Source: a virus. From it: 19,357 nt of DNA. The notes below the pieces were generated by a model. The model searched no databases. It was not told where the DNA came from and worked only from the letters and a program-made list of their open reading frames with translations. Positions 6,555 to 19,357 of the stretch are shown piece by piece. Every line of letters begins with the position of its first letter. The stretch's first letter is position 1. The DNA lies in IMG/VR virus record IMGVR_UViG_3300029235_000124, positions 1 through 19,357 of that record. The stretch is one strand, 5' to 3'. The position numbers were made by a program, and so were the translations under genes.

Positions 6555-6738
6555 GATGTTGGACATTATTAAAAAGCCCTTTTTTTTCAAAATATAAAAG
6601 TATTTCTGAAAGTTCTGAACGCGGAATACCAAGATAATCAAGTTCTTGAATAGCAATGAAATGACTGGTTTTAGACAATTCAATGAGAGCTTTATAAACA
6701 ATTTTTTGATTATCTGTAATGCAAAAATCGTAAAACAT
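6520..6738 (-). CDS. Small winged-helix-like DNA-binding protein (72 aa), opposite in orientation to the early operon
   Basis: AAAGGAGAA lies 8 nt before ATG 6738. The sequence KIVYKALIELSKTSHFIAIQELDYLGIPRSELSEILLYFEKKGLF resembles a wHTH. A TTGCCT-17-TATACT promoter candidate lies upstream on the minus strand. The 3' end overlaps the convergent 6327-6554 ORF by 35 nt. Confidence 0.55.
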   Translation of the reverse strand: MFYDFCITDNQKIVYKALIELSKTSHFIAIQELDYLGIPRSELSEILLYFEKKGLFNNVQHLSNAYPTLFSL

Positions 6739-6837
6739 AACAAGTTCTCCTTTCTTCTGTACTCGGCTCTGGCGGGGCCTGTGAGTACAGTATAGGACGG
6801 AGAAAACGGAAAGGCAACAAAGAGTTGATTATTTAGG

Positions 6838-6876
6838 AGTACCCATTGAGAAGTTGTTGGAGTAGGAGGTGAGAGA
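6838..6876 (+). repeat. Copy 2 of the roughly 40-nt leader repeat
   Basis: AGTACCCATTGAGAAG-T-TGTTGGA-GTAGGAGG-TGAGAGA, located immediately before ATG 6880. Confidence 0.8.
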
Positions 6877-6879
6877 CAT

Positions 6880-7101
6880 ATGCAGTATCCGAAAAAAGTA
6901 ATGAAGCTCACTGAGCTGGTAAAGGAAATGGGGTTCCCAGAAGAATATCTACAGAGGGCCTATCGACTTCCAACGCAGAGGTTTGCTGGAAAAATGAACC
7001 CGATGAAGAAAAATAGCCCAATCATATTTGATACAGAAGAGTTTGAAAAGTGGAGACTGCGTCAGATAGAGGCAGAGTCCCGGGCAATGATCAGGGGATA
7101 G
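6880..7101 (+). CDS. Small DNA-binding-like protein (candidate excisionase/MerR-type HTH; function tentative)
   Basis: 73 aa with GTAGGAGGTGA upstream. MKLTELVKEMGFPEEYLQRAYR resembles Xis-type HTH proteins. Stop is TAG. Confidence 0.6.
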   Translation: MQYPKKVMKLTELVKEMGFPEEYLQRAYRLPTQRFAGKMNPMKKNSPIIFDTEEFEKWRLRQIEAESRAMIRG

Positions 7102-7117
7102 AAGGGAGGTAGAAGTA

Positions 7118-7303
7118 ATGGCAAAGATCAAGAACTATGACGGTCAGACAGACATGGAGCTGTCCTATGTGGCAGTGCAGGCAACCAGGCCAAAGAAGAA
7201 AACTGTGGACTGGGTAGGCATCACGGAGACATTTATAGCCGGTGGCATGTGGGTGATAGTCTTCATGATGCTTGGGGCTGCGCTTGCGGTCCAGGTGCTG
7301 TGA
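7118..7303 (+). CDS. Small membrane protein (61 aa, one C-terminal TM helix)
   Basis: GGGAGGTAGAAG lies upstream. The hydrophobic tail is FIAGGMWVIVFMMLGAALAVQVL. Confidence 0.6.
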   Translation: MAKIKNYDGQTDMELSYVAVQATRPKKKTVDWVGITETFIAGGMWVIVFMMLGAALAVQVL

Positions 7304-7470
7304 TGACTAGTGCGGTACCTGCATCAGGAAGAACCGGTGCATGGAGAGAAGCCGCTTACAGGCATGCAGAGGCTACATAAAAAAGGACCCAGGCAGCGGC
7401 AACTGCGGAAGGTCCGGTAACAAAAACATTTTACACCCTCATTATACGGAGGGAGAAGGAGAATTGCAAG

Positions 7471-8736
7471 ATGGCAATGAAAATTAACAAGCTTGAGATT
7501 GAGAACGTCAAGCGTGTAAAGGCAGTAAAGATCGAACCGACAGCAAATGGGCTTACGATCATTGGTGGAAACAACAACCAGGGCAAGACTTCTGTCCTGG
7601 ATGCGATCGCCTGGGCTTTAGGCGGGGACAAATACCGTCCGTCCCAGGCTCAGAGGGAAGGCTCCGTGATCCCGCCAAACCTTCATATAGTCATGAGCAA
7701 TGGTCTGGTAGTGGAACGCAAGGGTAAGAACAGCACGTTAAAGGTAACAGATCCACAGGGACAGAAGGCCGGGCAGCAGCTTTTGAATGAGTTTGTGGAA
7801 CAGCTGGCACTGGATCTTCCGAAATTTATGGAGGCTTCTGACAGGGAAAAGGCAGGTATCCTGTTAAACATCATCGGTGTGGGAGACCAGCTGTCCCAGT
7901 TGGAAAAGGAAGAAAAGGAACTTTACAGTGAGCGTACCTATGTGGGGCGCACGGCAGACCAGAAAGAGAAGTATGCAAAAGAACAGCCTTATTATCCGGA
8001 TGTCCCAACAGTCCCAGTCTCAGCAGCGGAACTGATCCGCAAACAGCAGGAGATCCTGGCATAGAACGGGGAAAACCAGAGAAAGCGTGAAAGACGCCAC
8101 CAGCTGGAGCAGGAGATGCAGCGTGTCACGGATCAGATCCAGGAGCTTTTAAGGAAGCAGGCAGAGCTGGAAGCGGATCTTAAGATCGCCCGGTCGACCA
8201 GTGAGAACCTGCAGGATGAGTCTACCGCAGAACTGGAACAAAACATTGCAGAAGTGGAAGAGACCAACCGGAAAGTACGGGCCAACCTGGACAAAGACAA
8301 GGCAGAAGAAGATGCCAGGGGATACCGGGAACAGTACAATGCACTGACCGGAAAGATCCAGGAGGTACGGGATAAAAAGCTGGAACTGTTAAAGAAAGCA
8401 GATCTGCCGCTTCCAGGACTGACGGTTGAGGATGGGGAACTGGTCTACAATGGTCAGAAATGGGACAACATGTCCGGATCCGAACAGCTTAAGGTATCTA
8501 CCGCGATCGTACGCCGGTTAAATCCAAACTGTGGCTTTGTGCTCATGGACAAGCTGGAACAGATGGACCTGCATACCCTTCAGGAGTTTGGAAAGTGGCT
8601 GGAGGCAGAAGGTCTCCAGGCGATCGCTACCAGGGTATCTACGGGGGACGAGTGCAGCATTATCATCGAAGACGGGTATGTGGTAGGACAGCCGCACACC
8701 GAAGAAAAGAAAGAATGGAAAGCAGGTGTTTTTTAA
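7471..8736 (+). pseudogene. SMC/RecF/SbcC-like AAA ATPase (AAA_23 type) interrupted by one in-frame TAG at 8062-8064
   Basis: ORFs 7471-8064 and 8116-8736 are in the same frame, with 17 sense codons between the TAG and the next ATG. The N-terminal part has Walker A (GGNNNQGKTS). The C-terminal part has the ABC signature (SGSEQ) and Walker B (FVLMDKLEQMD). The coiled-coil sequence continues across the stop. Confidence 0.8.
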
Positions 8737-9906
8737 ATGGAGATCATCAGAGGAAAACAGCCGGGAGCAAAGAAGACCGTGATCTACGGTCCGGAAGGGA
8801 TCGGGAAGTCCACGCTGGCTTCCTGCTTCCCGGATCCGCTGTTCATTGATACAGAAGGTTCCACCAGGGATATGGATATCGCGCGTACCAAAGAGCCAAG
8901 CAGCTGGATGATGCTCATGGAGCAGGTCATGTATGTAAAGAACCATCCGGATATCTGCAAGACCCTGGTCATTGATACGGCGGACTGGGCTGAGATGCTC
9001 TGCATTTCCCAGATATGTGATAAGAACCACAAGAGCAGCATTGAGGAGTTTGGATATGGAAAAGGGTATACCTATGTCCAGGAAGAATTTGGGCGTCTTT
9101 TAAACCTGCTCACAGAAGTAATCAAGGTGGGGGTAAACGTGGTCCTTACAGCCCATGCAAAGATGCGCAAGTTTGAACAGCCGGATGAGCTGGGAGCTTA
9201 TGACCGCTGGGAGATGAAGCTGAGTAAAGGCGTAGCGCCCATGGTAAAAGAGTGGGCAGACATGGTACTGTTTGCGAATTATAAGACCATGGTGGTGAAC
9301 GTGGACGGCCAGGGAGCCCAGAAGGGGAAAAACAAAGCCCAGGGCGGAAAACGTGTCATGTATACCACCCACCACAGCTGCTGGGACGCAAAGAACCGCT
9401 ACAGCCTTCCGGATGAAGTGCCTTTTACATATGAGAGCATCCGGCAGATCCTGGAACCGGGAGCAGCCCGGGCAGAGGAGAGGCAGGAGGTAAAACAGCC
9501 AGGCCCTATACAGGAGACACAGCCAGCACCACCTGTCAGACCGGTAGAAACGGTAAAACATCCGGAGACAGCCAGTAGTAACAAGGGCAATGAAAAACCT
9601 GCAGAAGAAAAGAAAGGCATTGCGCCTGTGGAGGGCAGCAAAGGGGATGTAAAGCCGGATGGAAGATCGGCACTGGATCCACGTCTCCCAAAGAGACTGC
9701 GGGACCTGATGATCGCCAATGATGTGTGCGAATGGGATATACAGAACGTATGTGAAGCCAAGGGATATGTACCGGTGGATACGCCCCTTTACATGTATGA
9801 AGAGGTCAATCCGGGCTTTGTGGACGGCGTTCTGGTAGGTGCCTGGGACCAGGTGTATGCGGCGATCAGGGAAATGAAAGAAAAGGATTCTTTAGTATTT
9901 AATTAA
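8737..9906 (+). CDS. AAA_24-type RecA-like ATPase (Sak4-like recombination protein) with a linker and an extra C-terminal domain
   Basis: Walker A is VIYGPEGIGKST. Walker B-like is LVIDTADW. VVLTAHAK and a Pro/Lys/Glu-rich linker are also present. The TAA-ATG junction links it to the upstream gene. Confidence 0.8.
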   Translation: MEIIRGKQPGAKKTVIYGPEGIGKSTLASCFPDPLFIDTEGSTRDMDIARTKEPSSWMMLMEQVMYVKNHPDICKTLVIDTADWAEMLCISQICDKNHKSSIEEFGYGKGYTYVQEEFGRLLNLLTEVIKVGVNVVLTAHAKMRKFEQPDELGAYDRWEMKLSKGVAPMVKEWADMVLFANYKTMVVNVDGQGAQKGKNKAQGGKRVMYTTHHSCWDAKNRYSLPDEVPFTYESIRQILEPGAARAEERQEVKQPGPIQETQPAPPVRPVETVKHPETASSNKGNEKPAEEKKGIAPVEGSKGDVKPDGRSALDPRLPKRLRDLMIANDVCEWDIQNVCEAKGYVPVDTPLYMYEEVNPGFVDGVLVGAWDQVYAAIREMKEKDSLVFN

Positions 9907-9923
9907 TGAGGAGGATGAAAGAA

Positions 9924-10373
9924 ATGGCAGATTTAGGAAAAGAGATCGGCTGGGATGATGCGATCGAGAATGAAGGGACTGAGTTTGAGCCCCTTCCGGA
10001 AGGGACTTATGAATTTACAGTGGCATCCATGGAACGCGCCCATTTCGGAGGAAGCGAGAAGATGGCACCCTGTAACATGGCGAACCTGGACCTTCTGATC
10101 AAGGATAAGGACGGCAAGGAACACCATGTATTTGACAGCCTGTACCTGAACTCAAAGGCAGAGTGGAGACTGAGCCAGTTCTTCTTATGCATTGGACAGA
10201 AGAAGAAAGGGGAAGCACTGCGGCCTAACTGGAATGAAGTGCCATGCTCTACCGGCAAGGTGGAAGTCATGATCAATGAATATGTGGACAAGAACGGCAA
10301 TAAGCGCAGGAATAACCGTGTCAGCCGTTATCTGGAGTATGAACCAAAGCAGTTTAAGGCGGGTGTGTTCTAA
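9924..10373 (+). CDS. DUF669-family phage protein
   Basis: FEPLPEGTYEFTV is a typical DUF669 start. It sits between the AAA_24 and helicase genes, as in many Firmicutes phages. ATG 9924 is preferred (GAGGAGGA 8 nt upstream); the ORF track starts at 9906. Confidence 0.75.
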   Translation: MADLGKEIGWDDAIENEGTEFEPLPEGTYEFTVASMERAHFGGSEKMAPCNMANLDLLIKDKDGKEHHVFDSLYLNSKAEWRLSQFFLCIGQKKKGEALRPNWNEVPCSTGKVEVMINEYVDKNGNKRRNNRVSRYLEYEPKQFKAGVF

Positions 10374-11366
10374 ATGGAATTGAGACCGTATCAGGCAGAA
10401 GCGAAAGCAGCCGTATTTGAGCAGTGGGATAAGGGTACATTGAAGACCCTTTTGGTACTGCCGACCGGCTGCGGAAAGACCATCGTGTTTGCAAAAGTCG
10501 CAGAAGACTGTGTGCGTCAAGGATACAGGGTACTGATCCTGGCGCACCGGGGCGAGCTCCTGGAACAGGCTGCGGATAAGATCAAGAAGAGCACGAACCT
10601 GGGATGTGCGACAGAAAAAGCAGAGCAGACCTGTCTGGGGAGCTGGTTCCGGATCACAGTAGGCTCTGTACAGTCCATGCAGCGTGAAAAACGCCTGTCC
10701 CAGTTTTCAGAGAATTATTTCAATGTGATCATCATTGATGAGGCCCATCACTGCATATCAGACGGATACCAGAAGGTGCTGCAGCATTTCCCGTCTGCAA
10801 AAGTACTGGGAGTGACTGCAACGCCTGACCGTGGCGATATGCGTAACCTGGGAGAATTTTTTGAGAGCCTGGCTTATGAATATACCCTTCCGAAAGCGAT
10901 CCGGGAGGGTTATCTATCCCCGATCAAGGCCATGACGATCCCGCTGCAGCTGGATCTGTCCGGGGTATCCATCCAGTCCGGTGATTTTAAAGCCGGTGAC
11001 ATTGCAACAGCCCTGGATCCGTATCTGCACCAGATCGCGGACGAGATGATGAAATACTGCAGGGACCGAAAGACGGTCGTGTTCCTTCCACTGGTAAAGA
11101 CCAGCCAGAAGTTCAAAGAGATCCTGAATGAAAAGGGATTTAAAGCTGCGGAAGTCAATGGTGAGAGCAAAGACCGCGCAGAAGTCCTGGAAGCCTTTGA
11201 TAAAGGAGAATACAACGTCCTGTGCAATTCCATGCTGCTGACGGAAGGCTGGGACTGCCCGTCCGTTGATTGTGTGATCGTGCTGCGTCCAACAAAGGTG
11301 CGCAGCCTTTACAGCCAGATGGTAGGACGCGGGACCAGACTGTGTGAAGGAAAGAGCCATCTATTA
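10374..11366 (+). pseudogene. SF2 DEAD/DEAH-box helicase, 3'-truncated by deletion
   Basis: Motifs I PTGCGKT, II DEAH (IIIDEAHH), III TAT (VTATPDR) and VI QMVGRGTR are present. Helicase-like sequence ends about 10 codons after motif VI, and the frame then reads through into the tail-tube gene. Confidence 0.75.
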
Positions 11367-11393
11367 TCTATCAAAGAAAGTGAGGAATGTGTA

Positions 11394-11849
11394 ATGAGTG
11401 AAGTAGGAGGAAAAGTATATCCTGTACACAATAACGTGTTTAAATTTGGTACAAAGGGTATGGACAGCGTGGACGGCGATATGGTAATGCCTGCGGATCT
11501 GGAGAACTTTGCGCCAACCATTGACGGTACCACAGAAGAATGGTATGCCATGGACGCAGAAGGCTGGGCCAAATCTGCTATGACTGGCAAAAAACTCAGC
11601 TTTGCTTTTAAGGGAAAGCGTTCCGTAGGTGATGCCGGAAATGATTATATCGCAGGCCTTGCATGGAAATTTGGCCAGGATGTAATGACCAAGTTTGAGT
11701 GGACCATGACATCCGGGGCTAAGCTGGCTTGTGATGTAGTAGTAAATGTGACTACCCCAGGAGGCGGTGATACAACGAATATCGATGCCCTGGAGTTTGA
11801 GGTTACTTGTTATGGAAAACCAACCTATACACCGGTAGTGGCAGCGTAA
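11394..11849 (+). CDS. Major tail (tail tube) protein, SPP1 gp17.1-like
   Basis: Own ribosome-binding site GTGAGGAA before ATG 11394. FKGKRSVGDAGNDYIAGLA resembles the YYGKRGDAGQKAIEDA region of SPP1 gp17.1. It is followed by the chaperone pair and tape measure. Confidence 0.7.
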   Translation: MSEVGGKVYPVHNNVFKFGTKGMDSVDGDMVMPADLENFAPTIDGTTEEWYAMDAEGWAKSAMTGKKLSFAFKGKRSVGDAGNDYIAGLAWKFGQDVMTKFEWTMTSGAKLACDVVVNVTTPGGGDTTNIDALEFEVTCYGKPTYTPVVAA

Positions 11850-11865
11850 AAGGAGACAATGAGCA

Positions 11866-12165
11866 ATGGCAAAAGTAGTAGATATTACAGATAAGCTTAC
11901 ATTTGATGGGAATCCATGCCTGATGATCAATGGAGAAAAACTGGAGGTAAATGCAGATGCTCCTACCATGATGAAAGTAATTAATGTTACAAGAAATGGT
12001 GGAACTTCAGAAGAAAATATGAATGAATTATACGAACTGGTATTTCCAGAAAAATCCAGAAAGGTAATTGATTCGTTGAAACTGCTGGTTCCAGATTGGA
12101 TGACTGTCATTCAGGAGGCCATAAAGCTGATCACAGGAGATATCACAGGCCAGGGAGAGCGCTGA
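11866..12165 (+). CDS. Tail assembly chaperone (gpG position)
   Basis: 99 aa with AAAGGAGA upstream. It lies between the tail tube and tape measure genes. Stop is TGA. Confidence 0.7.
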   Translation: MAKVVDITDKLTFDGNPCLMINGEKLEVNADAPTMMKVINVTRNGGTSEENMNELYELVFPEKSRKVIDSLKLLVPDWMTVIQEAIKLITGDITGQGER

Positions 12166-12214
12166 CCCGTACTACGACCTGTTTGAAGACTGGGACCTGA
12201 TCATTTCCAGTTTC

Positions 12215-12499
12215 ATGACGCAGTACGGGTTGCGTATAAGGACGAAAGAGTTTGAAACGGTCAGCTGGGATGAGTTCCGTTCCCTGCTGGTCGGACTTGG
12301 ACCGGAAACTCCCCTGGGACGGGTGGTGGCGATACGTTCTGAAACAGATGATAATGTGATCAAACATTTTACCACTGATCAGCGAAGAATCCATGACAGC
12401 TGGCGTAAACATCAGATGGAGCAGATGACTCCGGAGGCTTATGACAGGGAAATGGAAGGTCTGGAAAGGATGTTCGCTGCATTATGCGGAGGTGGTTGA
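12215..12499 (+). CDS. Gp15-like/gpT-position tail chaperone segment; conserved sequence extends upstream to 12131 without a start codon
   Basis: TQYGLRIRTKEF..VSWDEFRSLLVGLGPETPLGRVVAIRSE resembles Gp15-family tail proteins. The same frame is open from 12131 (..DPYYDLFEDWDLIISSF..). There is no ribosome-binding site before ATG 12215. Confidence 0.6.
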   Translation: MTQYGLRIRTKEFETVSWDEFRSLLVGLGPETPLGRVVAIRSETDDNVIKHFTTDQRRIHDSWRKHQMEQMTPEAYDREMEGLERMFAALCGGG

Positions 12500-12647
12500 A
12501 ATTGAAAAAGTAAAGCATGAAAAAGTCCGGTGCCCGTATTGCGGGCATCCGGTCAATGCCATGAAGTCAGAAGATGCCAAATGCAAGGGCATCTTTTTTA
12601 AATGTAAAAATAAGGAATGCAGGAAAATATTTGAGTTAAAGATCTAA
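12441..12647 (+). CDS. Small Com-like zinc-ribbon protein
   Basis: CPYCGHPVNAMKSEDAKCKGIFFKCKNKECRKIF has a CxxC...CxxxxC layout like Mu Com. The start is uncertain: ATG 12441 with GGAGG 3 nt upstream, or the alternatives GTG 12492 and ATT 12501. Confidence 0.5.
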   Translation: MTGKWKVWKGCSLHYAEVVEIEKVKHEKVRCPYCGHPVNAMKSEDAKCKGIFFKCKNKECRKIFELKI

Positions 12648-12695
12648 GACGCTGTGCCGATGTGCCTGTCTTAACGAAAAGGGCAGGTGATATAT

Positions 12696-15600
12696 ATGGC
12701 AGCAGACAGCGTAGGCCAGATTGGGCTTGATCTGGTAGTAAATAAAAATGAGTTTGACAGTCAGATGCTGGGGATACAGAATCTGGCAAAAAAAGCTGGC
12801 AAAGCACTTGCAGCTGCTTTTGCAGTCAAAAAAGTATTTGACTTTGGAAAGTCCTGTATAGAATTAGGCTCTGATCTGGCAGAAGTCCAGAACGTAGTTG
12901 ATGTTACATTTTCCCAGATGAGCAAACAGGTAGATAAGTTTGCCCAGAATGCAGCCACTCAGTTTGGATTGTCTGAGACCATGGCAAAGCGGTTTACCGG
13001 TACTTTTGGAGCTATGGCAAAGGCATTTGGCTTCAGTGAGAAGGCTGCATATGACATGTCCACAATTCTTACTGGTCTTGCCGGAGATGTGGCATCTTTC
13101 TACAACATCAGCCAGGATGAGGCATATACGAAGTTAAAGTCTGTATTCACTGGTGAAACAGAAAGCTTGAAAGACCTGGGCATTGTTATGACCCAGACGG
13201 CTCTTGACAGCTATGCTATGGTAAATGGCTTCAGAAAGACTACAGCAAAGATGTCGGAAATGGAAAAGGTTGCCCTGCGGTATAAGTTTGTACAGGATCA
13301 GCTGACAACGGCAGCAGGTGACTTCTCCAGGACATCCACTGGCTGGGCGAACCAGGTCCGTATCTTACAGCTGCAGTTTGACAGCTTAAAGGCAACCATA
13401 GGACAGGGGCTTATAGCTGCATTATCCCCGGTCATCCAGGTGATCAACGCAGTCATTGGTAAAATACTCAGCCTGGTGAATGCATTTAAAGCTTTTTTTG
13501 CCTTGATGTCTGGTGGTAAAGATTCAGGAGCATCCGCAACTGCAGCGGGTATGGAAGCTGTAGCTGTCGCAGCAGATAAAGCTGGAACGGCTGCTTCCGG
13601 TGCTGGGAATGCTGCAAAGAAAGCTGCTAAGGATATCAAAACGGCTACCACTGGTATTGATGAGCTTAATATCTTAAACCCGGATAGTGGTTCAGATAGC
13701 GGAAGCGGATCTGGCGGTAGTGGAGCAGGCGGCTACAATGCAGATGACTTTGATATGGGAACACTTCCGGAACAGGAAGATATAGTCAGTGGTAAGCTGC
13801 GGAAGATAGCTGGCCTGCTGAACCAGTTAAAAGATTCTTTTACAAGTGGTTTTTGGGATGCTTTTGGCGACACATCTGTATTTGATTCGATCCAAAGCAG
13901 CATCCAGTCCATAAAAGACAGCCTTGGGAATATTTTTACTGATTCTGATGTGCAGACAGCGGCTTTAGGTTTTGCCAATACACTGGCCCAGTCATTAGGA
14001 CAGGTTACAGGTTCCATTGCAAGCATCGGTGCGAGTATTGCAGATAATCTTCTGGGAGGTATCAGCAGGTATCTTGAACAGAATAAGGACCGTATTAAAG
14101 ATTATCTGATCCAGATGTTTAATATTGGCGGTGAGATTGCGACATTAGTTGGAAATTTCACAAGTTCCATTGCAGGGATCTTTACTGTATTTCGCAGTGA
14201 CTCAGCGAAACAGATCACAGCTGATATAATAGGTATTTTCAGTAGTTCCTTTATGGGAGTTACAAAATTAGGCAGTAAATTTGTCCGGGATCTGATGCAG
14301 GTTATAACAAAGCCTATAACCGATAATGCTGGTCAGATCAAAGAACGGATACAGGGGCTATTAGACGAACTGCAGCCTATATTTGATAAGCTGAAAGAAT
14401 TAATTGATAAGATATGGGATGGCCTGAATACAGCTTATGATACTGTTGCAAAGCCAGTATTTGATGCATTTACAGAAGCGATATCTTCAGTTGTGGACTG
14501 GATAACAGAAACTCAGACACGCTTTGACGGAGCTATTGGAGTTGTTGCTGCTTTCTTTGGGGCATGGGAAGTTGTAAAACTTGGTGAATTCATCATTAAT
14601 GCTGGTGGCGTCGTATCAATGCTTTCTGGAATGGTAGCTGGTTTTGTAGCAAATGCGGCTGCTATTGCAACACATACAGCAGCGCTTATAGCAGATAAGC
14701 TGGAGACAGCCGCTATTGTTGCTATGTATGCCAAAGATTTTGTAGTAAACCTGGCGCAAGGAACAGCGGCCCTGGTGCAGCAGGCGGCCCAGTTTGTTAT
14801 CAATACAGCAGCAAAGATAGCAGATACCGCAGCTCAGATTGCCATGACTGCAGCTACAGTGGCTTGGAATGCTGTATGTGCGATCGCAACAACGGTTACT
14901 ACTGCTTTAGGTGCGGCTATTGCATTCCTTACCAGTCCGATCGGTTTTGTTATCATTGCTATAACAGCGCTGATTACGGCTGGAGTTCTTCTGTATCAGC
15001 ATTGGGATGAAGTCAAAAAGTTTGCAGCCGAAGCCTGGGAAGCAATTAAAAAGACAATAAATAATGCCATCGATGCGGTTAAGGTGTTCATATCCAGTAC
15101 GCTTGAACTGATAAAAACAGCCTGGGAAACTAAGTGGAACCAGATCAAGGCATTTGCATCTAATCTATGGAATACGATCAAAGCTCTTGCGACATCTATT
15201 TTCGAAGCGATCAGAGACAAGCTTTCCGAGATCTGGGACAGTGTAAAAAGGACTATTGAAGAAAAATGGAACGCTATCAAGGATTGGTTTGAAGATATCT
15301 GGAAAAAGATCAAAGAAGTGTTTAAACCGGATGCAATGATCGAGGTCGGAAAGAGCATCATGAACAAACTCTGGGACGGCTTAAAATCCGTCTGGGGTTC
15401 CATTGCCGGATGGCTACAGGGCTGTGCTGATTTTGTTGGTGGTGTCTGGGATGGCATTGTAGAAGGTGCAAAGAGTATTTTCAAGAGTGCTAAAGAAGAT
15501 GCAGAAGATGATGAGGAAGCAGATGACAGTGATGATTGGGATTATGGTACCAATTCACCGGTATCAGGTCATGCTTCCGGTGGCTTCCCTAAATCTGGTC

Positions 15601-16043
15601 AGATGTTCGTAGCCCGTGAAGACGGTATCCCAGAGATGGTTGGAAGCTGGGGCGGCCGTGCAGCAGTTGCCAATAACCAGCAGATCACCCAGGGCATTAC
15701 CCAGGCAGTCCAGAACGGCATGCGTTCCTGTATGGCTCCGCTTGTATCCATGATGTCAAGTGTAGCAGGTAATGCAGCACCGCCGCTGGCAGTAACAGGC
15801 CGTGCGGCTGTTTATGAAAATGATGATGACAGGCTTATGAACCTGGTAAGCCGCGCCATGGCGTTATCACAGAATGGTACTGGTATGGATGATTCACGTA
15901 TCGTGCGCATCCAGGAACTTTTGGAGCGCATTGTGGATCTGATCGAGGCCATGGACCTGACAGTGAGCATTGATATCCGAGATGTAAAGAAGAAATTGAC
16001 GGATCTGGAAAAGAGAAGCGGTTACACGTTAAGGACAACGTAA
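12696..16043 (+). CDS. Tail tape measure protein
   Basis: About 1115 aa. TP901-type core (LGSDLAEVQNVVD...LKSVFTGETESLKDLGIVMTQ), a GSDSGSGSGGSGAGG linker, an Ala-rich hydrophobic segment, and Trp residues recurring every 11 residues (WDEVKKFAAEAW.., WDSVKRTIEEKW..). ATG 12696 with AGGTGA 5 nt upstream. Confidence 0.92.
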   Translation: MAADSVGQIGLDLVVNKNEFDSQMLGIQNLAKKAGKALAAAFAVKKVFDFGKSCIELGSDLAEVQNVVDVTFSQMSKQVDKFAQNAATQFGLSETMAKRFTGTFGAMAKAFGFSEKAAYDMSTILTGLAGDVASFYNISQDEAYTKLKSVFTGETESLKDLGIVMTQTALDSYAMVNGFRKTTAKMSEMEKVALRYKFVQDQLTTAAGDFSRTSTGWANQVRILQLQFDSLKATIGQGLIAALSPVIQVINAVIGKILSLVNAFKAFFALMSGGKDSGASATAAGMEAVAVAADKAGTAASGAGNAAKKAAKDIKTATTGIDELNILNPDSGSDSGSGSGGSGAGGYNADDFDMGTLPEQEDIVSGKLRKIAGLLNQLKDSFTSGFWDAFGDTSVFDSIQSSIQSIKDSLGNIFTDSDVQTAALGFANTLAQSLGQVTGSIASIGASIADNLLGGISRYLEQNKDRIKDYLIQMFNIGGEIATLVGNFTSSIAGIFTVFRSDSAKQITADIIGIFSSSFMGVTKLGSKFVRDLMQVITKPITDNAGQIKERIQGLLDELQPIFDKLKELIDKIWDGLNTAYDTVAKPVFDAFTEAISSVVDWITETQTRFDGAIGVVAAFFGAWEVVKLGEFIINAGGVVSMLSGMVAGFVANAAAIATHTAALIADKLETAAIVAMYAKDFVVNLAQGTAALVQQAAQFVINTAAKIADTAAQIAMTAATVAWNAVCAIATTVTTALGAAIAFLTSPIGFVIIAITALITAGVLLYQHWDEVKKFAAEAWEAIKKTINNAIDAVKVFISSTLELIKTAWETKWNQIKAFASNLWNTIKALATSIFEAIRDKLSEIWDSVKRTIEEKWNAIKDWFEDIWKKIKEVFKPDAMIEVGKSIMNKLWDGLKSVWGSIAGWLQGCADFVGGVWDGIVEGAKSIFKSAKEDAEDDEEADDSDDWDYGTNSPVSGHASGGFPKSGQMFVAREDGIPEMVGSWGGRAAVANNQQITQGITQAVQNGMRSCMAPLVSMMSSVAGNAAPPLAVTGRAAVYENDDDRLMNLVSRAMALSQNGTGMDDSRIVRIQELLERIVDLIEAMDLTVSIDIRDVKKKLTDLEKRSGYTLRTT

Positions 16044-16057
16044 GGAGGCGGTAACAA

Positions 16058-16435
16058 ATGGCAGTAATAACGATCAATGGCCGGGAGTTCCCGGCTCCTG
16101 ATGTAGGTGGAAATCTTGTAGTTGCAACCAATGTTAGTTCCGGAAAAAATGCAAATGGCGAATTTGTTGGACAGAAGGTTGGCAGGGATCAATATAAATT
16201 CGATGCATTGCAGTGGAAATTCCTGGATGCAGCTACCTGGTCAGCTATGTTGCAGGAATTTGACAAATTTGTAGTGACCGCCCGGATCCCGGATATGGTA
16301 AACAATCGTTTCCAGACGATCCGCATGTATCCGGGAAACCGTACAGCCACGCCGGTCGAATTTAATGGATCAGGGCTTCCTACAAAGTACCGGGACTGTA
16401 AGGTCAACATCATAGACTGCGGGGTGATAGAATAA
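16058..16435 (+). CDS. Small tail protein directly after the tape measure (distal-tail position)
   Basis: AAGGAGG upstream. 125 aa starting MAVITINGREFPAP, resembling small post-TMP proteins of Clostridia phages. Function is inferred from position. Confidence 0.6.
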   Translation: MAVITINGREFPAPDVGGNLVVATNVSSGKNANGEFVGQKVGRDQYKFDALQWKFLDAATWSAMLQEFDKFVVTARIPDMVNNRFQTIRMYPGNRTATPVEFNGSGLPTKYRDCKVNIIDCGVIE

Positions 16436-18666
16436 TGCAAGCTGTAAGCAATGCATATAAACAGGAAATGAAAAAGCAGTATCGTGATCATTCCTATATG
16501 CGCGTCAGTATTGGCCTGATCAATCAGGAGGCCCAGGCATCTGCTTATATACCTGACCAGGAGAAATATGCTTATTATAGCAATCTGACCTGGCCACTCA
16601 ACAACTATGAGGTTTCGGAACTGTATGAAACCTGTGACCAGGATTACAGTACCGTAGATGGGAGTATGTATTTTTTGCCAAGGGAACGTCAGGATGCGGT
16701 CCTTAACCAGGGGATCATTACAGATGATCTTTTAGGTGAGGTTGAGATCCGTTTTCCGGTGCAGCACGATATAAAAGGTCTCACAGTAGAATTTGGCAAA
16801 GCGTATCCTGTGGATTTTTCCATTGTATCAGATGAACATACGGTTGAGATCACAGGGAATGATACAGGGCATTTTGTGACGGAAGAGATCTTTCCTGGTG
16901 CAACATTTCTCCGGTTTGTGCCAAAGGATATGGTCAATGGGCAAAGCCGGCTGCGGATCCACCGTATCACGATGGGAATCGGTATCTACTTTGATAACCA
17001 GAAGATATTGTCAGCCACAAAGAAAGAGCGGATCAGTCCTGTTATGGAAGATCTGCCATCCATTGATCTGAACATAACCATTGATAATAAAAACCGTGCA
17101 TATGACATTGAAAATGAAGAGAGTACGGTAAATTTCCTGGAAAATGGCCAGGAGATCAATGTAATTTACGGTCAGGAGTTGGATGATGGAAATGTGGAGT
17201 GGATGCCCGGTACCACGGTATATCTGCGGGAATGGTCTGCAGATGATGAAGAAATGAGTTTTACTGCTACGGATCGTTTTGATGGCATGGATGGAACTTA
17301 CCGCCGCGGAAAATATTATCCTGATGGAATAAGCCTGTATGATCTTGCAGTTGATGTCTTTGGCGATGCCGGAATAGACAGCCGTACCTATTGGCTTGAT
17401 AATTATCTAAAAGATGTTATGGTTTATAATCCAATGCCAGTAGTATCCCATAAAGAAGCACTGCAGCTGATCGCAAATGCCGGACGCTGTATTCTTTACC
17501 AGGACCGGAATGGAAATATATTTATGAAGTCCAGTTTTATACCGGACATGCAGGCAAGTTCAGCAAATGAAACTTACTTTTCTAATACGGCTTCAGTACT
17601 GGATGCAACAGAAAAAAGCACTTATGCCACACCGGAAAAGGATCACACAGAAGCATCAGCTGTACAGTTCTTTTTGCCATATCAGGATAAAAACTATCTG
17701 GATGTGGGATATGTATCGGAAGCAGTAGCGGATGAAGATGGGACATTTACAGAAGATCCATTGGTGACTATCGTTCTGGAAGCGCGGTACAAGTGCTTTG
17801 GCCTTACATTGGAATTTGGAGGTAATCATCCGTCTGGTATGGTATTCCGTTCCTATTTGGGAGAGGAACTGGTGGAAGAGTATAAAATATCTTCTCTTTC
17901 TGAAGTTACTGTGGTCAATCATGAATTCCCGGAATTTGATAAGCTGCAGATTGAATTTTCAAAGGGAGTACCGTTTAACAGGGTAAACCTGAAACAGATC
18001 ACATTTGGGGACGGTACTGATTATGAACTGTCTTATGGCAAAGAACTGAAAAAAACTCCCAAAGGCACCCAGCTGGCAAAAGTCCGTGAACTGCAGATGA
18101 CCAGGACGATCTATGCATCAGGAACTGAGAAAAGGCAACTGGTCAAGGAAACTGTACTGGCAGATGAAACCAGGCATACATTTTATCTTAATGCAGCGGC
18201 TTATGATTATGAAGTAGATGCAGCTGGTGGCACAAATGTCCAGATCATTGATAGCAGTGCATATTACGTTACGGTAGAGGTTGCCGGTGGAGCAGATACG
18301 GAAGTGACCATAAATGGATATGAATACAATGTAACACAGGCGCTTGTGACCAGACAGTTAAATCCCACAGGGACTGTTGAAACGTGGGAAAATCCGCTTG
18401 TATCTACGTTAAAGCATGCGTCAGATCTTGCTGAATGGATAGGAGATTATCTGCGTTCCGACCGGGAATATGATTTGGAATATCGTGGAGAGCCGCGTAT
18501 TGATGCAAATGATATTGCATTCCTGGAAAATAAATACGTTCCAGATCTGCTGCTGCGGATATATGAACATACATTGAAGTTTAATGGGGCATTGTCCGGC
18601 ACCCTAAAGGCAAGGAGGGATATGAGCAATGTGGCAACAGCCAAAAACAGACTGGCAGGCCAGTGA
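16435..18666 (+). CDS. Large tail tip/baseplate protein (Tal position)
   Basis: 743 aa, joined to the upstream gene by a TAATG overlap. The call rests on position and size. No enzymatic motif was recognised. Confidence 0.6.
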   Translation: MQAVSNAYKQEMKKQYRDHSYMRVSIGLINQEAQASAYIPDQEKYAYYSNLTWPLNNYEVSELYETCDQDYSTVDGSMYFLPRERQDAVLNQGIITDDLLGEVEIRFPVQHDIKGLTVEFGKAYPVDFSIVSDEHTVEITGNDTGHFVTEEIFPGATFLRFVPKDMVNGQSRLRIHRITMGIGIYFDNQKILSATKKERISPVMEDLPSIDLNITIDNKNRAYDIENEESTVNFLENGQEINVIYGQELDDGNVEWMPGTTVYLREWSADDEEMSFTATDRFDGMDGTYRRGKYYPDGISLYDLAVDVFGDAGIDSRTYWLDNYLKDVMVYNPMPVVSHKEALQLIANAGRCILYQDRNGNIFMKSSFIPDMQASSANETYFSNTASVLDATEKSTYATPEKDHTEASAVQFFLPYQDKNYLDVGYVSEAVADEDGTFTEDPLVTIVLEARYKCFGLTLEFGGNHPSGMVFRSYLGEELVEEYKISSLSEVTVVNHEFPEFDKLQIEFSKGVPFNRVNLKQITFGDGTDYELSYGKELKKTPKGTQLAKVRELQMTRTIYASGTEKRQLVKETVLADETRHTFYLNAAAYDYEVDAAGGTNVQIIDSSAYYVTVEVAGGADTEVTINGYEYNVTQALVTRQLNPTGTVETWENPLVSTLKHASDLAEWIGDYLRSDREYDLEYRGEPRIDANDIAFLENKYVPDLLLRIYEHTLKFNGALSGTLKARRDMSNVATAKNRLAGQ

Positions 18667-19030
18667 TTATTTTAATATCAAGGATTATAACCGCATAAAA
18701 GGAAATCTGAATGAGATCCGGCGTCAGGCGCTTATCCTGTGGCCGGATTTTACGTTTGAAGATATGGGCGGGGATAAAGCCTATACGGATTATGGCTTTT
18801 ATGCAGATGAGATCAACCGGTTTGAAGCCAATGTGGAACATATCTGTGTAGGTGTGTTCCCTTTTAAGGTAGGTGAACGGAAGACGTTTTACGAGAACCA
18901 GCTTTTTATTGACTGGAAGGAACTGAACCGTATCGAAGAGGCCTGCAGACTGATGTACAGTAATATCCAGAGCCGGATCACAGGGAGGCGTAAGCTTGCA
19001 TTTACCCTAAACGGAGGAGAGATATGTTAA
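18629..19030 (+). CDS. Tail-fibre-associated protein (hypothetical)
   Basis: AAGGAGGG lies 9 nt before ATG 18629. WQQPKTDWQASDYFNIKDYNRIKGNLNEI is a motif common in Firmicutes phage fibre-region proteins. Confidence 0.6.
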   Translation: MWQQPKTDWQASDYFNIKDYNRIKGNLNEIRRQALILWPDFTFEDMGGDKAYTDYGFYADEINRFEANVEHICVGVFPFKVGERKTFYENQLFIDWKELNRIEEACRLMYSNIQSRITGRRKLAFTLNGGEIC

Positions 19031-19357
19031 AAACGGATTATAAAGATGCCATGTATGATGGCGCACGGAAATATAAGATCACATCGAATGCCGATGGGAC
19101 TTCCGGTATTACAGATGAAACAGTCTATACGCAGGAAGGGGATCCCTTTGGAGCAAACGATATCAATTCCACAAACAAAGCTATCAACCGTATAAATGGT
19201 GAACCTGCTAATGTCACTCTTACAGCAAGCGGCTGGACGGGAGATACAGCTCCGTATAGCCAGACAGTTGAGGTAGAAGGTGTTACAGCAGAAGATAATC
19301 CCATCTTTGTAAGTCTGCTGGAAGATGGGGCTCCTGCAGAAACCCAGAAAGCATATA
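19024..19357 (+). CDS. Tail fibre/receptor-binding-like protein, 3' end beyond the window
   Basis: GGAGGAGAGAT precedes ATG 19024, which overlaps the previous stop. The frame is open to the window end (MLKTDYKDAMYDGARKYKITSNADGTSGITDETVYTQEGDPFGANDINSTNKAINRI...). Confidence 0.6.
   Translation, partial: MLKTDYKDAMYDGARKYKITSNADGTSGITDETVYTQEGDPFGANDINSTNKAINRINGEPANVTLTASGWTGDTAPYSQTVEVEGVTAEDNPIFVSLLEDGAPAETQKAY

Follow-up and report, generated by a model that had tools for sequence, protein, structure and literature searches.

The closest described relatives of the gene considered here are found in phages that encode proteins of the family phrog_1499, among them the Paenibacillus phages Dragolir and Vegas, in which the product is annotated as "chromosome segregation protein SMC", the Javan prophages of Streptococcus, and Dulem virus 35. 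The family consists of single genes for proteins of about 420-430 aa, and the gene order in these phages runs from the ATPase to an AAA_24/Sak4 protein, a DUF669 protein, an SF2 helicase and a primase. The PHROGs entry for phrog_1499 reads "unknown function", and the protein, whose gene precedes sak4, is described as an "AAA family ATPase" of the SbcC/SMC-like type. In some streptococcal phages, sak4 occurs together with an sbcC gene (PMC8093625), and the role of the DUF669 product as an SSB-like partner of Sak4 has been documented (PMC5928155, PMC13687109). With regard to stop codons, the human gut also harbours recoded phages, in which TAG is translated as Gln (code 15) and which carry many in-frame recoded stops, suppressor tRNAs being discussed alongside (10.1101/2021.08.26.457843, PMC9523058).

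The window, i.e., the whole stretch of 19,357 nucleotides of viral DNA that was analysed, encodes an ATPase sharing 64-74% amino acid identity with the proteins of the phrog_1499 phages, and its lineage has the same gene order, but an amber codon at residue 198 breaks the gene in two. On the plus strand, the frame opened by the ATG at 7471 extends over 421 codons, and the in-frame TAG at 8062-8064 is its sole interruption. This TAG occupies codon 198 and replaces Gln198, which is encoded by CAG in the nearest alleles. Two ORFs in one common frame result, the first (7471-8064) encoding a 197-aa N-terminal fragment of the SMC/Rad50-like ATPase (7471..8061) with matches to the Pfam families AAA_23, AAA_15 and SMC_N, and the second (8116-8736) encoding a C-terminal part of 206 aa. 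Between them, the 17 codons of 8065-8115 (NGENQRKRERRHQLEQE) contain no stop and are missing from both possible products. The proposal of the sequence-only reading that a lone TAG splits one intact frame, followed by 17 sense codons in the same frame, proved to be true, since the 421-aa readthrough product matches phrog_1499 from end to end (residues 1-407 against positions 1-426 of the 427-position profile), with an E-value of 1.9e-168 that puts the readthrough frame far beyond chance. The separate halves match profile positions 1-199 (E 2.4e-85) and 232-426 (E 1.3e-75), respectively.

The genes located downstream on the same strand reproduce the synteny of the family. The ATG of a Sak4-like AAA_24 recombinase gene (8737..9906; phrog_124, E 3.9e-73; PF13479, E 2.7e-65) directly abuts the TAA of the ATPase gene (TAAATG, 8734-8739), and is followed by the gene for a DUF669-type, SSB-like partner of Sak4 (9906..10373; phrog_2698, E 4.3e-53; PF05037) and by an SF2 helicase gene (10374..11849) that continues in frame into the C-terminal part of a tail-tube protein. 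Two proteins of 386-389 aa (P0122 and P0123), considered as shorter variants of the ATPase, were rejected as copies of the neighbouring Sak4-like protein that had been mis-clustered.

Motifs and candidate motifs of this class of ATPases are distributed on both sides of the amber codon. The Walker A motif GGNNNQGKT (residues 32-40, nt 7564-7590) occurs upstream, whereas SGSEQ (residues 335-339, nt 8473-8487) and FVLMD (residues 356-360, nt 8536-8550) occur downstream, as previously stated, although the labels "ABC signature" and "Walker B" then given to the last two come from motif inspection only. Among 51 sequences sharing 67-84% identity, K39, S335, D360, E363 and D366 are invariant, the three acidic residues with an ABC-like spacing, T40 and G336 are conserved in at least 90%, and the WKAGxF tail of the C-terminal half is invariant among the homologues. 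The candidate Walker B reads hhhhD-K instead of hhhhD-E, residue 361 being a Lys. In the same 51 sequences, N199, G200 and R206 are invariant and E201, N202, Q203, R204 and K205 are at least 90% conserved, so that no motif in the predicted helical centre of the protein is better conserved than that of the 17 orphaned codons.

With respect to the SMC, Rad50, SbcC, RecN and RecF types of ATPases, the Walker A region of the N-terminal half matches the SbcC, RecF, Rad50 and SMC models, all with scores far below the family cut-offs; the same half scores 49.9 bits against PF13476 (cut-off 27) and 35-39.7 bits against SMC_N, just short of the cut-off of 40. The LmuB protein of the Lamassu system matches the ATPase over residues 1-300. 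The predicted succession of an N-terminal head, a helical insert and a C-terminal head would resemble that of the SMC/Rad50/SbcC proteins, but at 421 aa the protein falls well short of them in length, its insert comprises about 170 residues, its C-terminal half has no significant match in Pfam, NCBIfam or PDB sequences and displays FVLMD-K, with the acidic E363 three positions on, and no gene for an Mre11/SbcD-like nuclease adjoins it. An AlphaFold2 model, built from an alignment without annotated GenBank rows, is of low confidence (mean pLDDT 66, pTM 0.42) and serves only to assign secondary structure and to compare the fold roughly. It predicts helices at residues 138-171, 186-220, 227-245 and 253-309, the second of which would contain the amber codon, and Foldseek places it closest to SMC and Rad50/SbcC heads that bear coiled coils (E 8.5e-7), at TM values of only 0.2-0.3.

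The comparison with related loci identifies the origin of the TAG. In about 110 of them, as well as in the annotated phages, the ATPase is encoded by one uninterrupted gene of about 420-430 aa, and no homologue naturally organized as two genes split at this point was found. Codon 198, compared in 69 loci matched by motif, is CAG (14 of the 69), CGG, AAG, AGG, AGA, AAA, CAA, CGA, GAG, CGC or CGT, corresponding to Gln, Arg, Lys or Glu, and is a stop in none. Every allele differing by 1-4 nt from the window gene, including those of loci L003, L004 and L005, carries CAG at this codon, and six alleles differ from it solely by the C/T at 8062. The TAG alleles compared are either 100% identical to each other or 2 nt apart. 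A C-to-T transition converted CAG into TAG, in agreement with the recent nonsense mutation that had been offered as one explanation. Programmed readthrough, offered as another, lost its support because the stop is conserved in no relative, a sense codon being present in 69 of the 69 loci.

Other splits in the ATPase family consist exclusively of independent point mutations or frameshifts. Independent knock-outs comprise a CAG-to-TAG change at Q203, in an allele diverged by 8.6%, and an AAG-to-TAG change at K375, and the neighbouring DUF669 and primase genes are also knocked out in some relatives. The TAG at Q203, five codons away from the one in the window, leaves the same restart ORF downstream. 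In a set of 5.8 billion proteins, the N-terminal fragments of the family range in length from 173 to 345 aa, with an even distribution and no clustering at 198-203, and many of these fragments are frameshift tails or contig ends, which indicates that no split point is preferred.

Two points would fit an error of sequencing or assembly in the window contig, namely the single base that separates its gene from intact alleles and the mosaic structure of the contig at about 7.1 kb. The probability of such an error is nevertheless next to nil, because the identical products recur on contigs from four independent sources (NCBI, JGI, Logan and ENA) and many cohorts: the exact 197-aa fragment is found on 550 contigs (1066 index blocks) and the exact 206-aa fragment, called as an ORF by gene callers, on 697. 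In addition, the ATPase genes of L083-L086 are 100% identical to that of the window. The amber allele is genuine and common in human-gut metagenomes, and, as the intact but otherwise identical protein is found on 102 contigs, the TAG haplotype is approximately five times commoner than its intact twin.

A partial reassignment of TAG to Gln resembling code 15, which the sequence-only reading had listed as a third explanation, would agree with the human-gut origin of the phage, with the Gln encoded at this site by the parent allele and by relatives, and with the fact that no window gene from 7118 rightwards terminates in TAG. However, the genomes with this allele also use TAG as a regular stop, for early as well as late genes, which deprives reassignment of support. 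It terminates five other genes of the window, eight other genes of L083, including the primase and the beta subunit of the host fumarase, 4 of the 27 genes of L139, among which those of TerS and of the major capsid protein, and 3 of the 12 genes of L134, these being tail/lysis genes located just past the end of the window; the full-length prophages of the TAG lineage thus end their primase, TerS and major capsid genes with the codon supposedly reassigned. At a TAG share of about 15-25%, chance alone accounts for 11 window genes without a TAG stop. Furthermore, a single in-frame TAG occurs in about 45 kb of TAG-bearing prophage, and the other called genes of L083, L125 and L139 contain no internal stop, unlike the genomes of recoded phages with their many in-frame stops (10.1101/2021.08.26.457843, PMC9523058). 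Reassignment is accordingly scarcely credible, and the window phage is not a member of the code-15 group.

The search for a decoding apparatus points in the same direction. No tRNA with a CUA anticodon was detected by ARAGORN in the window, L083-86, L125, L130 and L134-135, or in about 45 kb of TAG-bearing prophage, the TAG-bearing contig being covered as far as L139, some 4 kb short of its end, and no PylS scored above the cut-off in five genomes carrying related prophages, while a Methanosarcina control genome was positive; the reading had suggested a search for a suppressor tRNA or pyl genes. A tRNA-like gene at L125:11538-11608, examined as a possible suppressor, was rejected, owing to its shortened anticodon loop devoid of CUA and its occurrence in CAG phages as well.

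Gln is commonly inserted at UAG by near-cognate decoding. Leaky termination, in which an amber suppressor tRNA from host or phage, or a context-dependent readthrough, would yield some full-length protein, is compatible with the Gln of the parent allele, with the 17 open, in-frame codons after the TAG and with the tolerance of the allele in apparently viable phages. Nonetheless, a change of only one base would leave the frame past the stop open in any case, the stop is absent from the site in all 69 relative loci, and TAG ends many genes, including host genes, at their expected lengths. Since neither the window nor the TAG-bearing prophage sequence examined contains a CUA tRNA, and since the L125 tRNA-like gene lacks CUA and is shared with CAG phages, leaky termination seems very improbable.

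The downstream ORF deserves particular attention, because GGAGCAGGAG (8106-8115) immediately precedes the ATG at 8116 and thereby places a GGAG (8106-8109) 6 nt upstream of this codon, which corresponds to Met216. On the basis of this fortuitous Shine-Dalgarno-like arrangement (8106..8118), reinitiation and a separate translation of the C-terminal half may occur, as the sequence-only reading had cautioned. In more distant homologues, Tyr or His stands in place of Met216, so this site has not been shaped as a start by evolution.

Should reinitiation occur, the 197-aa and 206-aa pieces might reassemble as a functional two-chain SMC/Rad50-like head. In SMC/Rad50-type ATPases, both halves, linked by the coiled coil, fold as one head; the best structural matches of the model are SMC, Rad50 and SbcC heads with coiled coils, and the break falls in the predicted central helical insert, outside the head. 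The frequency of the allele in intact-looking, apparently mobile prophages, and the independent TAG at codon 203 that leaves the same downstream ORF, are likewise in keeping with a split but functional protein. Yet the 17 residues lost include N199, G200, R206 and the conserved positions 201-205, the GGAG and Met216 come from normal coding sequence and are not retained in more distant homologues, and no naturally split homologue exists among the relatives compared. The even spread of fragment lengths, the truncations located elsewhere, e.g., at K375, and the weakness of the structural model also weigh against such a protein, which we consider unlikely.

The genomic context of the allele shows that the amber mutation is older than the defect of the window. 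The same TAG allele occurs in complete-looking prophages of about 40 kb, in which the helicase, primase, terminase, portal, capsid and tail genes are intact; the TAG-bearing FENG16 scaffold_674, for example, possesses full sets of replication, packaging, head and tail genes. In the window, the product of 10374..11849 matches the phrog_16 helicase over residues 1-331 and the phrog_820 major tail protein over residues 347-489, and homology to the full-length relatives stops at 11365, near which the deletion junction lies. The exact helicase::tail-tube fusion protein is found on 6 contigs only, and those listed all carry the split ATPase. The 19-kb deletion is an event that arose after the TAG, inside the TAG lineage, so that the link previously drawn between the nonsense mutation and the "defective state" of the element does not hold.

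The TAG-bearing replication module of 6.8 kb is the same to within 0-1 nt in hosts with chromosomal flanks that differ at 13 positions in 3300 nt (0.4%), and this near-identity suggests a recent horizontal spread of the module. The allele thus presents a counter-pattern, being commoner than its twin, in functional-looking prophages and on a near-identical module, which also fits a neutral or advantageous allele or a functional two-piece protein. One may assume that the amber allele is favoured and does not simply reflect neutral decay, either through a working two-chain head or because the loss of the ATPase helps the phage, e.g., to evade sensing by host defences. This assumption would explain the excess of TAG over the intact twin, its travel across host backgrounds in intact-looking prophages and the second TAG five codons off, but has in our opinion a low probability.

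It is more realistic, and in our view quite likely, that the TAG represents an ordinary CAG-to-TAG knock-out, in which the codon acts as a normal stop, the full-length ATPase is lost and the phage tolerates the loss of an accessory gene. The mutation affects Gln198 of a phage SbcC/SMC/Rad50-like ATPase, encoded by the first gene of a putative recombination/replication module (ATPase, Sak4, DUF669 and SF2 helicase). It would have arisen in a temperate phage that was complete in other respects and had human-gut Lachnospiraceae (Enterocloster-like) as hosts; the allele then became a common haplotype, to which the 19-kb deletion was added later in a small sub-lineage including the window. With the TAG read as an ordinary stop, a 197-aa Walker-A fragment would be produced instead of the 421-aa ATPase, accompanied at best by a 206-aa C-terminal piece arising from chance reinitiation at ATG 8116, and the invariant NGENxRKR segment would be missing from both. 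We infer from this arrangement that the ATPase has lost its function and is dispensable; the amber mutation is probably tolerated, and the persistence of the allele may reflect an accessory role of the ATPase, which phage and prophage alike could spare. Such a history resembles ordinary prophage decay by the one-base stop in an accessory gene beside intact alleles, the further stops and frameshifts nearby and the later deletion in a sub-lineage, but differs from it in that the broken allele is the commoner of two near-identical haplotypes and resides in apparently intact and recently mobile prophages.

For the annotation of gut phages, a lone in-frame TAG should not be taken as a sign of code 15, and where hundreds of metagenomic contigs show separate "genes" of 197 and 206 aa, a single gene has been annotated in two parts. 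For testing the function of the ATPase, nature has provided a matched pair in the CAG and TAG haplotypes. As to the family, a widespread natural knock-out in apparently intact and recently mobile prophages suggests that the SMC/SbcC-like ATPase of Sak4-DUF669 modules is dispensable for the phage.

The TAG at 8062-8064 of the window lies in frame with the ATG at 7471 and separates two ORFs of one common frame, 7471-8064 (197 aa) and 8116-8736 (206 aa), between which stand 17 sense codons, NGENQRKRERRHQLEQE. The 421-aa read-through product (P0001) matches phrog_1499 alone among the PHROG profiles, its residues 1-407 covering positions 1-426 of 427 (E 1.9e-168); searched separately, the N-terminal piece covers positions 1-199 and the C-terminal piece positions 232-426. 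Owing to this end-to-end match and to the separate coverage of the two pieces, the profile comparison confirms, far above chance, the sequence-only reading of a single in-frame TAG splitting an otherwise intact ATPase gene. By its sequence, the product is a P-loop protein of the SMC/Rad50/SbcC/RecF type. Pfam matches (AAA_23, AAA_15, SMC_N) are confined to the N-terminal P-loop region, and the placement of Walker A upstream of the TAG stands. The C-terminal half has no significant match in Pfam, NCBIfam or PDB sequences, and its "signature" (SGSEQ, 335-339) and "Walker B" (FVLMD, 356-360) are labels drawn from motif inspection and column conservation, S335, D360, E363 and D366 being invariant in 51 sequences. 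D-K (D360-K361, window 8548-8553) closes the Walker B-like strand, where the canonical ending is D-E; K361 is invariant across the ATPase family and is followed by the invariant E363.

With respect to its relatives, the protein is covered over at least 80% by 106 GenBank phage records (tblastn). Two of them were examined, those of Dulem virus 35 (428 aa) and Streptococcus phage Javan377 (426 aa), and in each the matched region is one annotated CDS; in Paenibacillus phages a single "chromosome segregation protein SMC" is annotated under it. Some 110 fetched loci from species genomes, IMG/VR and metagenomes likewise carry an uninterrupted gene, and a naturally split gene was thus rejected. In 69 loci, the codon facing the TAG in the alignment is CAG (14), CGG, AAG, AGG, AGA, AAA, CAA, CGA, GAG, CGC or CGT, encoding Gln, Arg, Lys or Glu, and none has a stop there. 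The nearest intact alleles (loci L088, L090, L091, L094, L095 and L120) differ from the 1266-nt gene of the window at exactly one base, C/T at 8062, which identifies the event as one C-to-T transition, of very recent date, in a glutamine codon (CAG). Comparison with homologues thereby bears out the first of three explanations proposed earlier, a recent nonsense mutation.

The second, programmed readthrough, was rejected because the stop is conserved in no relative. The third, a partial reassignment of TAG, conflicts with the ordinary use of this codon as a terminator of early, late and host genes. TAG ends five other genes of the window, eight other genes of L083, a TAG-bearing locus (among them those for the 763-aa primase and for the fumarase beta subunit of the host), the small terminase and major capsid protein genes further right on the same contig (L139), and three tail/lysis genes just past the right end of the window (L134). 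Right of 7.1 kb, none of the window's genes is terminated by TAG, which the full-length relatives show to be a small-sample effect. No internal stop occurs in the other called genes of the TAG-lineage prophage (about 45 kb). The tRNAs found by ARAGORN in the window are restricted to tRNA-Met, -Phe and -Lys on the host side (130-393), and none of the TAG-bearing loci yielded a tRNA with a CUA anticodon. A search for PylS gave nothing above cut-off, with a positive control, in five genomes carrying related prophages, a set distinct from the TAG-lineage host itself. With a single internal TAG and no CUA tRNA in the loci searched, recoding was rejected, and the TAG is read as an ordinary stop.

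A conserved, 71-nt tRNA-like gene (L125:11538-11608; Rfam tRNA, 49 bits) sits between the early and terminase genes of the full-length relatives, in the region deleted from the window, with other copies in L130 and at L128:11685-11755, L087:20851-20921, L088:21167-21236 and L092:16386-16456. ARAGORN assigns it an "anticodon" of two bases, its anticodon loop lacking about 3 nt. It was discarded as an amber suppressor on account of this short loop, the lack of CUA and its occurrence in both CAG and TAG phages.

Exact-sequence look-up in NCBI, JGI/IMG, Logan and ENA recovered the 197-aa N-terminal fragment from 550 contigs (1066 index blocks) and the 206-aa C-terminal fragment from 697 contigs, and the ATPase genes of four different cohort assemblies (L083-L086) are 100% identical to that of the window; a sequencing or assembly error was rejected on these grounds. 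The intact, otherwise identical protein with Gln198 was found on 102 contigs (212 blocks). In two independent pattern scans, TAG occupied 1 of 28 near-identical sites (0 of 7 in IMG/VR, 1 of 21 metagenome contigs), the surrounding population being represented by a 90%-identity protein cluster of 1119 distinct members. Given this low share despite hundreds of contigs, the TAG haplotype is a common single haplotype in a larger, mostly intact population.

The TAG had also been connected with the defective state of the element, a link that the complete gene sets of other TAG-bearing prophages do not support. In the window, the ORF 10374-11849 fuses the helicase N-terminus to the tail-tube C-terminus, and homology to full-length relatives ends at 11365. 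The TAG allele also occurs in fumarase-adjacent prophages with an intact 529-aa helicase, 763-aa primase, RusA, TerS and TerL, together with SPP1-type portal, minor capsid, scaffold, major capsid and connector genes, followed by tail terminator, tail tube, chaperone, tape measure and distal tail genes (gene content from three overlapping pieces of contig FENG16 scaffold_674). The exact 491-aa fusion protein is found on 6 contigs only, with the split ATPase in all three of those shown. The TAG therefore preceded the deletion: it appeared in a phage that was still complete, and only a small sub-lineage was affected by the deletion afterwards.

In its right 12.3 kb, the window matches L135 at 100% identity over 7444-19284, and L134 at 99.83% over 7101-19357. 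Both are deleted prophages whose left arm, a fumarase-site lysogeny module carried by L134, differs from that of the window. The left 7.1 kb of the window is a different lysogeny module adjoining the tRNA cluster (1-7100; tRNA-site integrase, NYN gene, ImmA with zinc ribbons, and Ant; L088-type), 95% identical to L088 over 1-1855. Since its two parts match different prophage types, the window is a mosaic at about 7101, produced either by natural recombination or by chimeric assembly at shared sequence.

Three TAG loci (L083, L084, L085) were aligned over 1-16800 with the CAG locus L090, which occupies the same fumarase-adjacent integration site. Between L083 and either L084 or L085, the chromosomal flank differs at 13 of 3300 nt and the ATPase-to-primase block at 0-1 of 6810 nt (Fisher p = 5e-7 and 5e-6). 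The host flank of L090 is close to those of L084 and L085 (1-3 differences) and its ATPase gene departs from that of the TAG loci at the TAG alone, whereas its Sak4-to-primase block differs from theirs at 67-68 of 5530 nt (1.2%). L084 has, in addition, a divergent integrase-proximal stretch at positions 3304-4043. Because the flanks differ while the block is nearly identical, and because L090 is mosaic, the replication module is much younger than its host backgrounds and recombines on a fine scale. The three loci are consistent with a recent horizontal spread of the TAG-carrying phage or its replication block, and would argue that the mutation is tolerated.

The ATPase gene opens a module that continues with an SSB-like protein of the DUF669 type, preceded by a Sak4-like AAA_24 protein and followed by an SF2 helicase. 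Sak4, a RecA-like protein, carries out single-strand annealing under stimulation by its cognate SSB (PMC5928155), a DUF669 protein and a Sak4-like AAA protein mediate recombinational repair in a Pseudomonas phage (PMC13687109), and an sbcC-like gene is sometimes found beside sak4 in streptococcal phages (PMC8093625); the ATPase itself is tested in none of the papers found. A low-confidence AlphaFold model (pLDDT 66) consists of an N-head, helices 138-171, 186-220, 227-245 and 253-309, and a C-head; structural comparison places it closest to coiled-coil-bearing heads of SMC and Rad50/SbcC (E 8.5e-7, TM 0.2-0.3). In this model, the TAG falls inside the predicted helix 186-220, some 25 residues ahead of a likely hairpin turn at about 221-226. 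The best-conserved motif of the central region is contained in the 17 residues that separate the TAG from Met216, with N199, G200 and R206 invariant and 201-205 at least 90% conserved (51 sequences, 67-84% identity).

Termination at the TAG would most likely create a loss-of-function ATPase allele. A GGAG at 8106-8109, spaced 6 nt from the ATG at 8116, could conceivably allow a two-chain protein keeping head activity, but the conserved 199-206 motif would be missing from both chains, and Met216 and GGAG are ordinary coding sequence, the residue being Tyr or His in more distant homologues. Since the ATPase TAA abuts the Sak4 ATG (TAAATG, 8734-8739), an early stop might reduce the translation of Sak4 as well, unless ribosomes load again at 8116. 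The ATPase ends in a W-K-A-G-x-F tail (window 8716-8733; W416, G419 and F421 invariant in 51 homologues of 67-84% identity), and the DUF669 protein has the same KAGVF ending (window 10353-10370). A shared docking peptide is plausible; in the TAG allele it would be present on a C-terminal product only.

Other knock-outs occur in the same module. A second independent amber, at Q203 (CAG to TAG), lies in an allele differing at 109 of 1266 nt (8.6%; L137:3980-5245 and L138:375-1640), which is present on 4 contigs representing at least two cohorts; the prophage has another backbone and lysogeny module, and its helicase is intact. A third independent in-frame TAG replaces the AAG of K375, past the Walker B region (L110:2392-3654). 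That the stops are TAG is expected, this being the only stop that a single base change yields from CAG or AAG. That codons 198 and 203 are so close is most readily put down to the way the second allele was found, within the 90% cluster of the 197-aa fragments; truncated N-terminal fragments of the family are evenly spread between 173 and 345 aa, many with frameshift tails. A stop interrupts the DUF669 gene at codon 10 in two loci, L100 and L118, and the L089 primase (14508-16685) is truncated to 725 aa. Such sporadic damage in neighbouring replication genes gives the baseline decay of the module.

In this accessory phage ATPase, the TAG is accordingly an amber mutation that is real, recent and common; it predates the deletion in the window copy and represents a further example of a well-known type of event. 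It is rather improbable that the ATPase works in its split form or that its loss is favoured; the remaining novelty would reside in that chance, if true.
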